A stretch of DNA of 64,000 nucleotides from Candidatus Omnitrophota bacterium (lineage in GTDB: Bacteria; Omnitrophota; Gorgyraeia; Zapsychrales; Aceulaceae): contig JAKQPK010000013.1 in NCBI GenBank assembly GCA_029564765.1, forward strand, positions 28,216 through 92,215, written 5' to 3'. The notes below the pieces were generated by a model. It was not told where the DNA came from and did not search any database. It saw nothing but the letters and a program-made list of their open reading frames with translations. Shown here one piece after another: positions 8,919-33,151 of the stretch (position 1 is its first letter; each line of letters begins with the position of its first letter). A program made the position numbers and the translations under genes.

Positions 8919-10262
8919 ATGTGGCGAAGATTTTTCTCGGCTGTTAGGATTATAGGGTTGGTTATGCTGGGGCTTATGGCTTTACCAAGCCATAGCTTTG
9001 CTGAAGAGCCCGTTGCATGGGCAAGTCAGGTCGGATTGGATACTGTCTGGGTGTTGATCGCCGCGTTCTTGGTTTTTTTCATGCAAGCGGGCTTTGGGAT
9101 GGTAGAGGCCGGCTTTATCAGAGCCAAGAATACGTGCAATATCTTGACGAAAAACTTTTTGGATTTTTGTATGGCGTCGTTAGGTTTTTTTATTTTTGGC
9201 TACGCCATCATGTTCGGTCCAGGCAACGGCTTCATGGGGTTCAAGGGATGGTTTTTGGTGGGTGCTGAATCCGCTTCAAGCGTTCCCTTGTTCGCCTTTT
9301 GGTTGTTTCAAGCTGCTTTCTGCGGAGCTGCAGCCACGATCGTGGCTGGAGGCATGGCAGAGCGCATGAAATTTCAAGCTTACCTTATTTACTCGTTTGT
9401 GATCTCTGCCTTGATATATCCTATCATTGGTCATTGGGTTTGGGGTGGTGGATGGCTTGCTAAATTAGGTTTTATGGATTTCGCTGGCTCAACGGTTGTT
9501 CATGCCGTTGGTGGTTTTGCTGCCCTGATAGGAACGATCATTCTAAAACCAAGAACAGGCAAGTACAATCCGGATGGATCTGCAAATGCTATTGCCGGCC
9601 ATAATATTCCTCTCGCTTCTTTAGGGGTCTTTATCTTGTGGTTTGGCTGGTTTGGTTTCAATCCAGGATCTACGTTAAGCGTTGGGGATGGAGAGCTGAT
9701 CGGACGCGTCGCGATCAATACCAATTTAGCCGCGGCAACCGGAGGCATTATGGCTATGCTGATGGTTTGGAAGATGTTTGGAAAGCCTGATCTTTCGATG
9801 GCCATGAACGGTGCTTTGGCAGGATTGGTGGCTGTGACCGCTCCTTGCGCTTTTATCGATCCTTGGGCCGCTATCGTGATCGGAGGAGTAGGCGGGCTTA
9901 TCGTTGTTTTAGGGGTTGTGATCCTTGACAAGCTTCAGATCGATGATCCGGTCGGTGCTGTTCCCGTCCATGGTCTTAATGGTGTTTGGGGCACGCTTTC
10001 CATCGGTATTTTTGGTAAGGCAGCCTTGGGAGTTCCTTCCAGCGGCCTTTTGTATGGCGGAGGATTTTCTCAGCTTGGGATCCAGCTGTTAGGTGTTTTG
10101 GCTGCTGTTAGCTTTGTTGTTGTCACGATGGGACTTCTTTTTAAGATCGTTGATGCTACGATCGGGCTTCGTGTTTCGAAGGAAGAAGAATTCAAGGGTT
10201 TGGATATCGGAGAACATGGAATGGAATCTTACTCTGGCTTTCAAGTCTTTACGACCCAATAA
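8919..10262 (+). CDS. amtB: Ammonium transporter AmtB (Amt/MEP family) with signal peptide
   Basis: RBS GGAGGAGG plus ATG at 8919. Amt signature [26 protein letters not shown] and 11-TM topology. The track ORF begins earlier at TTG 8868. Confidence 0.9.
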
Positions 10263-10282
10263 GCCGGAGATCGGAGGTTAAT

Positions 10283-10624
10283 ATGAAATTAATTATCGCA
10301 ATGATCCAACCGCACAAATTGCCTGATGTCAAAAAAGCGCTGTTTGATGCACAAGTTCACAAAATGACGGTCACCAATGTGTTGGGATGCGGTCAGCAAA
10401 AAGGTTATAGTGAGACATATCGTGGCGTTATTCACGAGATCAATCTTCTGAAAAAAGTACGCCTTGAGATCGCAGTAAATGAAGACTTTGTAGAACCCAC
10501 AATTAACGCTATAATGAAAGGTGCTCGTAGCGGTAATGTGGGCGATGGCAAGGTGTTTGTCCTGGACTTGCCCCGCTGTATTCGCATCAGGACTGGGGAA
10601 GAAGGAAGGGAAGCCATCGGATAA
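10283..10624 (+). CDS. glnK: Nitrogen regulatory protein P-II (GlnK type, amtB-linked)
   Basis: [13 protein letters not shown]...[13 protein letters not shown] (T-loop with the conserved Tyr)...DGKVFV. Lies immediately downstream of amtB. Confidence 0.9.
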
Positions 10625-10659
10625 CCTTTGATCATGATCATCCTAAGGAGGAAAGGGCA

Positions 10660-29849: not shown

Positions 29850-29906
29850 AAGTTTTGTCGTATAATACTAACAACATCTTTTGTTGTCTTTCTCAAGGAG
29901 TCAGCG

Positions 29907-31514
29907 ATGAGTAAATTTATTTTTGTCACAGGTGGCGTTGTTTCCAGTCTTGGCAAAGGCCTTGCCTCTGCTTCCATCGGAAAGATGTTAGAAGCCCGTG
30001 GATTGACAACAACAACGATGAAATGCGACCCCTATCTAAATGTCGATCCGGGAACTATGAATCCTTTTCAGCATGGTGAGGTTTATGTCACTGATGACGG
30101 CGCGGAAACAGATCTCGACCTGGGACACTATGAGCGTTTCACGAACGCAAAAGTAGGCAAGGACAGCAATATCACAACAGGAAAAGTATATTATTCCGTT
30201 ATCGCTAAAGAACGCAAGGGAGAATATTTAGGGAAAACAGTCCAGATCATTCCGCATATTACCGATGAAATAAAAAACGGCATCCGTAAGGTCGCGAAAG
30301 AGCGCGATGTGGATGTCACGATCGTTGAGATCGGAGGTACCGTCGGCGATATCGAAAGCCTTCCTTTTCTGGAGGCGATCCGGCAGATGCGCTGGGAGCT
30401 GGGGACAGGATATTGCATCTTTATTCATTTGACCCTTTTGCCGTTCATTCGTTCAGCCGGAGAGCATAAAACAAAACCAACGCAACATAGCGTTGGCCGT
30501 TTACGCGAGATCGGCATCACTCCCGACATCTTATTGTGCCGCACGGAAAAGACCATTACTAAAGAGCAGAAGGAAAAGATCGCGCTTTTCTGCAGCGTTG
30601 ACCGCGAGGCAGTCATTGAGGCGATCGATGTCAAATATATTTATGAAGTGCCTTTGCATTACCAGAAACAGGGCTTAGACGATCTTATCTTGCGCAAGCT
30701 GAACATTTCCCGTCCTGAAGGGGACCTGCACAAGTGGGAAGATTTTGTGATCAAGCGCCTTAAAAGCCCCAAGCATGAGGTCAAAATAACCGTTGTTGGT
30801 AAATACATAACATTGCCGGATGCTTATAAATCTATCTATGAATCTTTAGTTCATGGGGGCATTGCTAATGACGCGCGGGTCGTTATTAATAAAGTAGATT
30901 CTGAAGATCTAGAGAAAGGCAATATCGCGAAGATCCTTGAGGGGTCTGATGGGATCTTGATCCCCGGCGGGTTCGGCGTGCGCGGGATCGAAGGAAAGAT
31001 CCGCGCCGTAGAATATGCGCGGGAAAATAAGATCCCTTTCTTTGGGATCTGCTTAGGCATGCAGGTGGCTACGATCGAGTTTGCTCGGCATGTCTGCGGT
31101 ATGAAAAACGCTAATTCCAAAGAGTTCGATCCATCGACGCAGTATCCGGTGATCGATCTTTTAGAAGAGCAAAAGAAAGTCCGAAATATGGGGGCTTCAA
31201 TGCGTTTAGGCGCGTACGCTTGCCATGTCGTGAAAGGTACGCACAGCCATAAGGCCTACAAAAAAGAGAATATCGCCGAACGTCATCGGCATCGTTACGA
31301 GTTCAATAATCATTTTCGCAAGGATCTTGAGAAAAAGGGAGTTGTATTCGCTGGCATTCATCAGGAAAGGAATCTTGTTGAGATCATCGAACTTAAGGAT
31401 CATCCCTGGTTCGTTGCTTGCCAATTTCATCCGGAGTTCAAATCTAAGCCAGACAAAGCGCACCCACTCTTTCAGGATTTTATCGCTGCGTCATTGGCTC
31501 AAAGATCTAAATAG
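29907..31514 (+). CDS. pyrG: CTP synthase
   Basis: [18 protein letters not shown]...GICLGMQ GATase. 535 aa. Confidence 0.95.
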
Positions 31515-31519
31515 AAAGC

Positions 31520-33151
31520 ATGACAAAATCCAAGAAAGTTTTTGTTCTTGCAAGCTTTATCGCCCTAACCATCCTCTTGGCTGTTGCTTATTGGCCCTCG
31601 ATCAGCTCTTATTATGTCATTCATGATGATACTGTTTTCTTTTTAAAATCAGAGACACGGCTTGATCCCCCTGGAACTTTTGCCCTTATGGGTCGAGGTC
31701 GTCATGTGGGGGCTGTTTTATTCGCGCTCTTTGGCCAACTTGTGCGATCGATAGATGATCTAAGGATCATCCGCTTCTTAAGCCTTGTTCAGTTGTGTGT
31801 CTGCGGATCTCTTATGATCGCGTGGATGCAAAAATATTTCTCTAGCAAGGTTGGTGCGTTCTTGGTGATGTTGATCGCGCTGACTTTGCCGCCTTTTCAA
31901 GTCGTCGTTTCTAATACGGGCATGTGTTTCTTGCCGTTTTCTGTTCTCTTCGCCATCATGGCTTTTCGTCTGGCAGATGGCCTCCTCATCGACAAGGTCT
32001 TTTTAAAGACGCTTGTGTCCTGGAGGATATTTTTTGCCGTCCTTTTCTTTGTCGCAGCGCTTTCAACATATCAGCCAGGAGCAATGTTTTATTGGAGCCT
32101 GTTTGGCTTTTGGATCCTTTTCTCAAAAAAACAGGGTTTTAGGGAAGGCATGATCAAAAGCGGCTTGTTGCTCTTTCCAGCTGTTTTGGGATTTGCTACT
32201 TACGCGGTAATCCTCCAGCTAACAAAAAAATATTTTGTGCAATTCAATCTTTTTAGCTATAACCCCTATGTTTTTTCAACAGACTATTTGTCTAAGTTGC
32301 GATGGTTTGTTGCAGAGCCAGTTGTTCATATGCTCAATCTGTGGAATATTTTCCCAAAGACCATTTATGCGGTGGGTGTTCTGGCGTTGATAGCTTTAGG
32401 GATGTTAGTTGCTTTTTTAAGGAAGGCTAAGGACGCGCAGGCCCTGAGCTTCGCAGAGATCGCAGGGCGTGGATGTATTTTGATAGCATTGCTTTTCTTA
32501 AGCGCTTTGCCAAATCTTGTAACAACAGCTGACATGTCTTTGTATCGGTGTTATATGGCGCTAGCCGCGCTTATTACTTTTTTGATCGTTTGGTCGATAT
32601 GGCAGCTTTTTCCTGTCGGGCATGGCCGAAAGATTTTCTTTCTGATCTTGATCTTTTTTAGCGTTTTTGGAATAGCTCAGGCACGCCAAACCGTTCTTAA
32701 GTATCGGGTTCAGCCAAGTCATCAAGAAACACTTTTTTTCTTGGACGCTGTCAGGCAAAAGAATCTCGGTGATTATGAAAGGGTCTATGTCGTCCTCTTG
32801 GATGAACAGCAGTTCGCCAATAGAGGGGATGAATACGGTAATTTTACGACATTTTATTCGCATGATATTGTGGGAATGTTTACTTGCGCGCTAAGAGAGC
32901 TGTCCAAGGGGTTTCTGGTCATTCATATGATGTTCCTTGATGAAAAAAGCAATCAAGTTGTTTATGTTTTTAGGGAGGCGCGCCCTCAGGGACGAAAATA
33001 TGCGTACCGGGTCGTTGTCGAGTCTGGAATGCAGATCAAAACGGAAGATGACTTTTTGCAGCCCACCCTTGTGATCAATATGACAAAATTTTCTTCAGGC
33101 CTGCCGAGATATTATTTCAAGAACATCCAAGAAAACCCGTTGAAATTCTAA
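31520..33151 (+). CDS. Polytopic membrane protein, putative GT-C-fold glycosyltransferase-like (paralogue of 33351..35009)
   Basis: Many TM helices in the N-terminal two thirds and a soluble C-terminal third. First loop motif [12 protein letters not shown]. Clear paralogy to the next-but-one gene. Confidence 0.4.

Follow-up and report, generated by a model that had tools for sequence, protein, structure and literature searches.

Genes that take up ammonium, make glutamine and spend its amide nitrogen stand in one packed string in the genome of a Candidatus Omnitrophota bacterium, which raises the question of whether they form a single regulated unit or have merely come to lie side by side. 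We analysed a 64-kb stretch of this genome (assembly GCA_029564765.1, contig JAKQPK010000013.1, positions 28,216 to 92,215), hereafter the window, with genes taken from open reading frame (ORF) calls and from Pfam and NCBIfam scans. The array as analysed occupies positions 8919-33151 of the + strand and runs from the ammonium transporter gene amtB to a gene for a membrane protein downstream of pyrG. In the window and in a second species (loci L085 and L002), and up to gltB in a third locus (L086), the nitrogen and glutamine regulon is fused in one packed string that has attenuators at its head only. From the sequence, the array is probably a fused nitrogen/glutamine regulon, that is, one unit of about 24.6 kb gated by transcription attenuation of the ANTAR type.

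The original prediction, made from the letters of the DNA, had listed the genes of the array, and their order, strand and identities were all borne out by the ORF calls and the domain scans (Table 1). This includes the description of the product of 21464-24124 as a KaiC-like protein with a PPDK_N domain, with which Foldseek agreed. Two starts given by the ORF lister were replaced, TTG 8868 of amtB by ATG 8919, which has a Shine-Dalgarno sequence 5' of it, and TTG 15160 of the Fis-type ORF by ATG 15212, which fits the sizes of its homologues (65-73 aa). The junctions measure, in order, 20, 35, 3, 41, 2, -4, 17, 18, 12, -17, 6, 57 and 5 nt, in keeping with the gaps of 0 to 60 nt first reported. 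Overlaps of stop and start codons are present at fis/gltB (ATGA, 4 nt) and carA/carB (17 nt), whereas the one proposed for nadE/fis exists only with TTG 15160 as the start of the Fis-type ORF. The array is bounded by 383 nt on its 5' side and, on its 3' side, by 29 nt to a tRNA gene and then 88 nt. Gaps nearest to the array on the outside measure 383 and 516 nt; farther away, they range from overlaps up to about 650 nt. It was fair to say that the array holds most glutamine amidotransferases of the window, where the only other one seen was glmS (57588-59420), which does lie further on, at 24.4 kb past the array end and not at 26 kb. The window ORFs scanned yielded no guaA, asnB, purL, hisH, trpG or gatA. 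The + strand carries 35 of the 42 large ORFs in the window, with a + strand run from 4808 to 37725, and the GC skew is positive throughout, so co-directionality by itself is weak evidence. The spacing of the array, its single functional theme and its conservation in other genomes are above chance.

The head of the array is a leader in which a sigma-70-type promoter is followed by three tandem units, each made of a 4-bp hairpin GGGC-[ANNGAA]-GUCC whose 3' arm overlaps an intrinsic terminator. With its (G)UCC this arm contributes to every terminator stem the 2-3 pairs at the base, an overlap that is real but short. The 14-mer GGGCANNGAAGTCC occurs exactly three times in the 64 kb, always in the leader, against 0.26 occurrences expected with one mismatch allowed. 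The minimum free energy (MFE) fold of the leader forms the three terminator hairpins (-79 kcal/mol, z = -5.4), and the terminator-like site at 8720 was also picked up by the terminator scan. With regard to the dual hairpin (P1 plus P2) architecture of ANTAR systems, a second hexaloop hairpin forms the terminator apex in unit 1 (ACCU-AAUGAA-GGGU) and unit 3 (GCC-AAAGAA-GGC), where the lower part of the terminator stem supplies, with its 5' strand, the linker between the two hexaloop hairpins; unit 2 has none. An ANTAR target has been described as a short stem with a hexaloop bearing A1 and G4, beside a terminator (PMC3369931), and the leader hairpins, with loops AACGAA, ACAGAA and AAUGAA on 4-bp stems, have this form. 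With Rfam covariance models at gathering score, only two tRNAs pass in the window and there is no match in the leader. Known RNA families (glnA riboswitch, T-box, PyrR and bglG RAT) were rejected, as a permissive scan of 8500-8960 returned sub-threshold noise, the best matches being bglG-cis-reg (23.5 bits, threshold 80) and PyrR (18.8 bits, threshold 54).

Three hairpins in a row downstream of the 7150-8535 gene, each a good intrinsic terminator, might also be the stacked terminators of an upstream ANTAR/HD-GYP transcript, with the array expressed constitutively and no attenuation at all. Against this, a promoter with 11 of 12 consensus matches lies between the stop codon of that gene and the hairpins, and promoter and hairpins are conserved together in L085 and L086 despite a different upstream gene. 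The same hexaloop hairpin stands 5' of every terminator, and an identical promoter-hairpin-terminator design is found in relatives before carA, nfnA and the PPDK_N gene. We consider stacked terminators very improbable. As a side observation on the attenuator, pairing is possible between the U-run of terminator 3 and an A-run downstream of it (GAGGAUUUUUUC...GAAAAAAUCCUC) in a hairpin also present in L085, and in the next small hairpin CUCC-type bases pair with the amtB Shine-Dalgarno sequence. Judged from the sequence, these two hairpins could give the attenuator a further level of control, at translation.

The A1/G4 hexaloops and terminators of the leader led us to predict an ANTAR protein nearby, which was then found at 5879-7120. 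Some 1.6 kb separate the end of this gene from the first leader hairpin downstream, and its product carries two GAF domains followed by ANTAR. In the NCBIfam scan, GAF1 matches the GAF domain at the N terminus of EI-Ntr/PtsP at 1.2e-39 and GAF2 the GAF domain of NifA at 2.4e-26. The GAF domain of NifA binds 2-oxoglutarate. That of EI-Ntr binds glutamine (PMC4848567). Homologues of the protein, at about 70-81% identity, make up many Omnitrophota clusters (at least 120). Among the contigs looked up through these homologues, the gene was upstream of amtB in all six that extend past it (the window, L085, L086, L088, L089 and L090), with other genes intervening in the window and L088. We propose the 5879-7120 protein as a candidate RNA-binding antiterminator of the leader. 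The promoter, the three ANTAR-type units, the regulator gene nearby and the lack of internal copies partly support the single nitrogen-responsive leader and the single switch of the original prediction; that its signal is nitrogen status we infer.

The gene between the ANTAR gene and the leader encodes a membrane signalling protein with HAMP and HD-GYP-type domains. It starts 29 nt past the ANTAR gene and its place is specific to the window genome, L085 and L086 being without it. In Pseudomonas putida, cyclic di-GMP (c-di-GMP) is reported to impair the ANTAR protein NasT (PMC10783516), so a second-messenger input to the ANTAR switch is conceivable.

Relatives contain both fused and split versions of the array. 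We fetched 80 loci of GTDB species representatives through an alignment of PPDK_N homologues, and exact-protein look-ups added ten. Two of the pieces, L085 and L002, belong to one 116.8-kb contig of another species, which shows the ANTAR gene, the same promoter and three units in register, then amtB to the membrane protein gene and a tRNA-Leu(GAG). Protein identity to the window is 66-88% for most products and 39-63% for the GATase, nadE, HTH and membrane proteins. L086 has the same arrangement as the window up to gltB, where the fetched DNA ends. The synteny in related genomes on which the original prediction had placed weight is thus present, with the full order in L085 and L002 and a partial one in L086. 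In the alignments, L085 and L086 have promoter 8665-8693 in the same register, and compensatory changes keep terminator stems 1 and 2 in L085 and stem 2 in both L085 and L086. No internal hairpin/terminator units were detected in L085 and L002, apart from weak scan matches in L002, and terminator-like matches there were at chance. Some relatives carry an extra gene of about 270 codons, with no family match and possibly porin-like, between leader and amtB; the window is without it.

A core of glnN, GATase, nadE, HTH, gltB, gltD and PPDK_N genes is conserved in L084 and, up to gltB, in L089. L081 keeps the core without the GATase gene and with an insertion sequence (IS), and L082 keeps it from the GATase gene on, without nadE and with an attenuator before the PPDK_N gene. 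The insertion in L081, an IS200/IS605-type Y1 transposase gene (2871-3533) between nadE and the HTH_8 gene, indicates that array junctions can be broken. In split Omnitrophota, each break has a GGGC/GGAC-hexaloop-GYCC hairpin that overlaps a terminator. Such units precede amtB, glnN or glnA, the PPDK_N gene, carAB-purF and a further block that is not part of the window array (Table 1). That block lies 3' of the PPDK_N gene and encodes an NfnA-like protein (NAD_binding_1/DHODB_Fe-S_bind), a GltD/NfnB-like protein and glutamate dehydrogenase (GDH). For the carAB-purF unit of L082, a separate TTGACA-17-TATATA promoter lies 8 nt upstream of the hairpin, and two GGGC-type hairpins stand 39-45 nt apart in L081, L082 and L084. 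Because the separate blocks each carry their own element in relatives, these genes form one regulon in this lineage, and the attenuator of the L082 block places carAB-purF under ANTAR-type control even where it stands alone.

These sites were retrieved by structure. An exact search for GGGCANNGAAGTCC in the first 80 loci gave one irrelevant match and missed the sites of the relatives, so that a structure-based scan was needed. Paired stems and G as the fourth loop base were conditions of this cross-genome scan; in a loose form it returned 50 matches against 11-21 in shuffles, and those of the GGGC/GGAC type were all in these leaders and had the same orientation as the genes downstream. Among 24 units from 10 genomes, loop position 1 was A in 19 and G in 5, with G4 imposed by the scan. 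Stems vary across genomes from G-U to G-C or A-U, and L021 has A-U for G-C.

The relatives also bear on neutral packing, in which leading-strand bias and genome compaction would have brought the genes together with no shared regulation. The excess of large ORFs on the + strand and the uniform GC skew of the window are what it would lead one to expect. It does not account for 11 of 15 consecutive genes with roles in ammonium uptake or in making, sensing or consuming glutamine, for an order conserved in another species at the identities given above, or for separated blocks that carry the same cis element. We find this explanation hardly credible.

In the attenuation model that we favour, transcription would start at the strong sigma-70 promoter, whose -10 hexamer ends at 8693, and polymerase would meet three successive intrinsic terminators within 190 nt. 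Just 5' of each terminator, the mini-hairpin GGGC-[ANNGAA]-GUCC would share its last 2-3 nt with the basal pairs of the terminator. Once its GAF domains report nitrogen status, the GAF-GAF-ANTAR protein would bind the hexaloop hairpins; by analogy with the GAF domains of EI-Ntr and NifA, the likely signals would be low glutamine and/or high 2-oxoglutarate. Bound protein would keep the bases of the terminators from forming, and polymerase would read on through amtB-glnK and the genes for type III glutamine synthetase (GSIII), the GATase, NadE, the HTH protein, glutamate synthase (GOGAT), the PPDK_N protein, CarAB, PurF, PyrG and the membrane protein. The unit would end after tRNA-Leu at terminator 33276. 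The mechanism follows the EutV/NasR paradigm by analogy, from which it departs in the short overlap of hairpin and terminator, in the lone hexaloop hairpin of unit 2 and in the place of the second hexaloop hairpin at the terminator apex in units 1 and 3. The binding of protein to RNA, the identity and sign of the signal and the single transcript are presumed.

Signals inside the array are compatible with one unit. The genes lie on the same strand with short or overlapping junctions and no internal intrinsic terminators, as expected of an operon. Terminator-like matches numbered 17 against 22.1 and 26 against 23.7 expected from shuffles, all within coding sequence, so the earlier impression that no internal terminator is obvious held. 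A structure-based scan of the array strand for internal attenuators gave only one weak match, of 7 pairs, inside the PPDK_N gene. Sigma-54-type -24/-12 matches (TGGCAC-N5-TTGC) occur 6 times against 4.35 expected, and none is in the leader. Control by sigma-54 and NtrC was rejected: the two exact matches, on the + strand, lie in gltB (17545-17559) and carB (27215-27229), are not conserved in relatives and are probably due to chance.

Several points weigh against a single attenuated unit. Genes carAB, purF, pyrG and nadE are housekeeping genes, and three serial terminators would nearly silence them in the off state; their position ahead of essential genes implies that the switch is on during growth, that there are internal promoters or that paralogues exist elsewhere. 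The overlap between hairpin and terminator is only 2-3 nt. Covariation of the hairpins is partly built in and not independent proof, since the scan required pairing and G4. GAF-ANTAR proteins have no characterised member (PMC3369931, PMC12591593). The promoter scan was at chance (24 matches where 24.8 were expected, and 28 where 27.2 were), and, as it is uninformative, promoters may lie within the coding sequence of the array. The largest gap, between purF and pyrG (29850-29906, 57 nt), contains a perfect TATAAT together with a weak AT-rich hairpin, and the corresponding gap of L002 (18396-18466) likewise has TATAAT.

The strongest alternative is a mosaic of several transcription units placed end to end. 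The ANTAR leader would then control only amtB to glnN, perhaps to gltD, and carAB, purF, pyrG and possibly nadE would be fed mainly by promoters in coding sequence or in the purF-pyrG gap. Nucleotide and NAD synthesis are needed under all conditions, the blocks can work as separate units in relatives, TATAAT stands in the purF-pyrG gap of both species and the promoter scan is unable to exclude internal sites. On the other side, no gap exceeds 57 nt and no junction fits a promoter plus a terminator, internal terminators are not above chance, the TATAAT of the window has no -35 partner and is all that the gap shares with L002, and carAB-purF of L082 has an ANTAR-type attenuator of its own. We regard a mosaic as possible but doubtful, and continue with the single attenuated unit as the preferred interpretation.

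A more far-reaching version of the single unit can be drawn. One GAF-GAF-ANTAR sensor would read glutamine and/or 2-oxoglutarate directly and run the whole glutamine economy in Omnitrophota and some Elusimicrobia. In this lineage, three serial attenuators would gate a single 24.6-kb transcript for ammonium uptake, GS-GOGAT, five glutamine-dependent biosynthetic enzymes and the widespread dikinase-like PPDK_N protein, which in anaerobes would regulate glutamate synthesis or be a missing part of it that is driven by ATP. Taken jointly, these claims are unlikely to hold.

The PPDK_N protein itself is 100% identical to one annotated by NCBI in a Candidatus Omnitrophota MAG, and it gave a good AlphaFold2 (AF2) model (pLDDT 80.6, pTM 0.80). 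Foldseek related its N-terminal domain to KaiC (E ~1e-8) and the remainder to rifampin phosphotransferase 5hv1 (3.6e-10). The family consensus is without a Walker A motif (GxxxxGK[T/S]), the P-loop position reading GVRLGDNVVFQVD with no GK[T/S]. The family alignment and the AF2 model place an invariant Thr789-His790 in a flexible C-terminal loop. Neither a PEP-utilizers domain nor a phosphoenolpyruvate (PEP)/pyruvate TIM barrel was detected by Pfam or NCBIfam, so the protein is not a PEP synthase; in a sequence search of the PDB, PEP synthases matched only in the ATP-grasp segment (residues ~355-478). With rifampin phosphotransferase and with PEP synthase and pyruvate phosphate dikinase (PPDK), it shares the PPDK_N ATP-grasp, a fold like 5hv1 and an invariant His in a flexible loop. 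It differs from them in its additional KaiC-like N-terminal domain without Walker A and in its genomic partners, which are GOGAT, GDH and GSIII.

Homologues with 54-85% identity were found in Omnitrophota, Elusimicrobia, Fibrobacterota, Spirochaetes, Verrucomicrobiota, Planctomycetes, Deltaproteobacteria and Methanomassiliicoccales, with at least 565 confirmed matches in the collection of species-representative genomes. A gltB, gdh or glnN gene lies within 7 kb of the PPDK_N gene in 43 of 84 loci (29 of the 51 with 5 kb or more on each side), and in about 20 loci the PPDK_N gene directly adjoins gltB or gltD. PPDK_N proteins of 1,470-1,513 aa were considered as a domain-fusion clue and rejected, since they repeat this one module in tandem and add no new domain. 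Our search for literature that connects the PPDK_N family with GOGAT or GDH brought up no relevant work. Our best guess from the sequence is an ATP-dependent phosphotransfer step by which glutamate synthesis is regulated or supported.

Two smaller members of the array also recur in relatives. The stand-alone GATase gene is flanked by glnN and nadE in L002, L084, L085, L086 and L089 as well. The 77-aa HTH_8 protein, the sole HTH_8 protein noted, has no AAA+ domain. HTH_8-only proteins of 65-77 aa likewise stand just 5' of gltB in five relatives (Table 1), the homologues measuring 65-73 aa. The stop of their gene overlaps the gltB start by 4 nt in the window, L081, L085, L086 and L089, and a 240-nt gap separates the two in L082. 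This protein may be a DNA-level autoregulator.

Table 1. Positions of the features of the leader, the array and its surroundings, and of the corresponding elements in relatives. Positions are those of the window unless a locus is named.
Feature	Position	Strand	Evidence or description
GAF-GAF-ANTAR protein, 413 aa	5879-7120	+	Pfam: two GAF and ANTAR (PF03861) 5e-20
HAMP and HD-GYP-type (HD_5) membrane signalling protein	7150-8535	+	NCBIfam best match: NosR-family c-di-GMP phosphodiesterase
Sigma-70-type promoter TTGACA-17-TATATT	8665-8693	+	11/12 consensus matches
Hexaloop hairpin 1, GGGC-AACGAA-GUCC	8708-8721	+	Loop A1 and G4
Intrinsic terminator 1	8720-8759	+	12-bp stem 8720-8749, apex hexaloop AAUGAA, then UUUUAUUUU
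Hexaloop hairpin 2, GGGC-ACAGAA-GUCC	8761-8774	+	4-bp stem, A1/G4 loop
Intrinsic terminator 2	8771-8808	+	12-13-bp stem 8771-8801, then U7
Hexaloop hairpin 3, GGGC-AAUGAA-GUCC	8821-8834	+	4-bp stem, A1/G4 loop
Intrinsic terminator 3	8831-8886	+	Stem 8831-8875 with inner GCC-AAAGAA-GGC hairpin, then UUUUUUCUUUU
U-run (terminator 3)/A-run hairpin	8870-8898	+	MFE fold of leader
Small hairpin occluding the amtB Shine-Dalgarno sequence	8897-8913	+	MFE fold of leader; hairpin region 8870-8916
amtB, ammonium transporter	8919-10262	+	PF00909 1.6e-133; ATG 8919 preceded by Shine-Dalgarno sequence GGAGGAGG
glnK (PII)	10283-10624	+	PF00543 6.3e-27
glnN, type III glutamine synthetase (GSIII)	10660-12765	+	GSIII_N 4.4e-75, Gln-synt_C, Gln-synt_C-ter
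Stand-alone class-I GATase domain protein, 234 aa	12769-13473	+	PF00117; PRK07053 2e-54
nadE, glutamine-dependent NAD+ synthase	13515-15209	+	CN_hydrolase and NAD_synthase; PRK13981 4.4e-219
Fis-type HTH_8-only protein, 77 aa	15212-15444 (most likely ATG)	+	PF02954 3.2e-11
gltB, glutamate synthase large subunit	15441-19985	+	GATase_2, Glu_syn_central, Glu_synthase and GXGXG domains
gltD, glutamate synthase small subunit	20003-21445	+	TIGR01317 3.3e-195
KaiC-like/PPDK_N protein, 886 aa	21464-24124	+	PF01326 2.1e-46
carA	24137-25237	+	CPSase_sm_chain and GATase
carB	25221-28457	+	CPSase_L domains and MGS
purF, amidophosphoribosyltransferase	28464-29849	+	GATase_6/7 and Pribosyltran
pyrG, CTP synthase	29907-31514	+	CTP_synth_N 4.7e-127 and GATase
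Membrane protein, 543 aa	31520-33151	+	10 predicted transmembrane segments; no family match (Pfam/NCBIfam)
tRNA-Leu(GAG)	33181-33262	+	Promoter-like site of its own 33140-33167
Strongest terminator of the region	33276-33304	+	9-bp stem, 6 GC pairs, then U7
Hairpin/terminator unit before amtB	L003, L005, L013, L028, L088, L089, L090
Unit between glnK and glnN or glnA	L089 at 13914; L090 at 13358
Unit before the PPDK_N gene	L082 at 9943
Unit before the nfnAB-like-gdh block	L081, L082, L084
Unit before carAB-purF	L082 at 17747
NfnA-like/NfnB-like/gdh block	L081 13040-16796; L082 12875-16534; L084 12846-16682		Not in the window array
Extra gene between leader and amtB	L085 12109-12909 (266 aa); L086 11575-12387; L013 ~14600-15900	minus (L013)
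HTH_8-only proteins just 5' of gltB	L081 3577-3795; L082 566-763; L085 19507-19722; L086 18715-18930; L089 18774-18995

At its 3' end, the array closes with a membrane protein that is a paralogue of the product of 33351-35009. The two have 10 predicted transmembrane segments each and common N-terminal motifs, and neither has a family match. They may serve an envelope function unrelated to glutamine. In L002, pyrG is followed by a homologue of the membrane protein (39% identity), with a tRNA-Leu(GAG) likewise 3' of its gene. The terminator at 33276-33304 is likely the 3' end of the array unit. Farther on, a minus-strand signalling cluster (37739-41499) comprises genes for a response regulator of the REC-GGDEF type, a GAF histidine kinase and a protein with a FIST domain, with a tRNA-Glu downstream of it and purC at 42333-43286.

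ANTAR control of nitrogen genes is already known, having been predicted widely in 2012 (PMC3369931). ANTAR sites were then predicted upstream of genes for PII, amt and glutamate, glutamine and arginine synthesis, and for Desulfotomaculum acetoxidans 13 such sites were predicted, spread over six transcription units (Ramesh et al. 2012, PMC3369931). The window shares with those regulons the A1/G4 hexaloop mini-hairpins beside terminators, the nitrogen targets and an ANTAR protein in the genome. It differs in that the targets are merged in one unit of about 24.6 kb with three serial attenuators in one leader, that the set extends to NadE, PurF, PyrG and the PPDK_N protein, and that the regulator is a GAF-GAF-ANTAR protein. 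In addition, its hairpins share no more than 2-3 nt with the terminators, and not every unit has a second hexaloop hairpin.

In the NasR/nasF leader of Klebsiella oxytoca and the EutV/eut leaders of Enterococcus faecalis, an ANTAR protein binds the leader hexaloop and suppresses a downstream terminator. NasR is a one-component regulator and EutV a response regulator, and the NasR gene adjoins its target operon, in which it resembles the window. Their sensor domains are NIT (NasR) or REC (EutV), whereas the window protein has two GAF domains; their signals are nitrate or ethanolamine, and there is one attenuator per leader, compared with three in the window. Their targets are catabolic or assimilatory, in contrast to the central glutamine metabolism, nucleotide synthesis and NAD synthesis of the array. 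The enterobacterial nitrogen regulation (Ntr) regulon (glnALG, glnK-amtB and gltBDF, under NtrBC and sigma-54) likewise coordinates ammonium uptake, PII and GS/GOGAT. It does so by activating initiation at dispersed sigma-54 promoters, whereas the window has a sigma-70-like promoter with proposed attenuation and includes carAB, purF, pyrG and nadE. The pyr operon of Bacillus subtilis is also a long biosynthetic operon, with carAB homologues and the RNA-binding protein PyrR acting at three attenuators. The PyrR sites are spread over the leader and the pyrR-pyrP and pyrP-pyrB intervals and respond to UMP and phosphoribosyl pyrophosphate (PRPP), whereas the attenuators of the window are stacked in the leader; protein family, RNA motif and signal all differ.

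Our search for literature on nitrogen operons of Omnitrophota, or on GAF-ANTAR proteins with glutamine synthetase, found nothing relevant. New here are the scale and fused state of the unit, the triple in-series attenuator and the contrast between fused and split versions across genomes, together with the inclusion of the amidotransferases of NAD, carbamoyl phosphate, purine and CTP synthesis.

If the interpretation is correct, the array would provide a clear example from nature of how a regulon collapses into an operon, with the same cis element standing before four or five split blocks in some genomes and once, in triplicate, before the fused array in others. It would thereby offer a comparative system for why bacteria choose regulons or operons. 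Predicted ANTAR control of nitrogen metabolism would reach the consumers of the glutamine amide, namely the syntheses of NAD, carbamoyl phosphate, purines and CTP. The GAF-GAF-ANTAR protein, of an abundant architecture, would become a tractable GAF-ANTAR candidate with candidate ligands and a defined RNA target. The locus also draws attention to the PPDK_N family, which is highly conserved and for which position beside GOGAT, GDH and GSIII genes is the sole functional clue.

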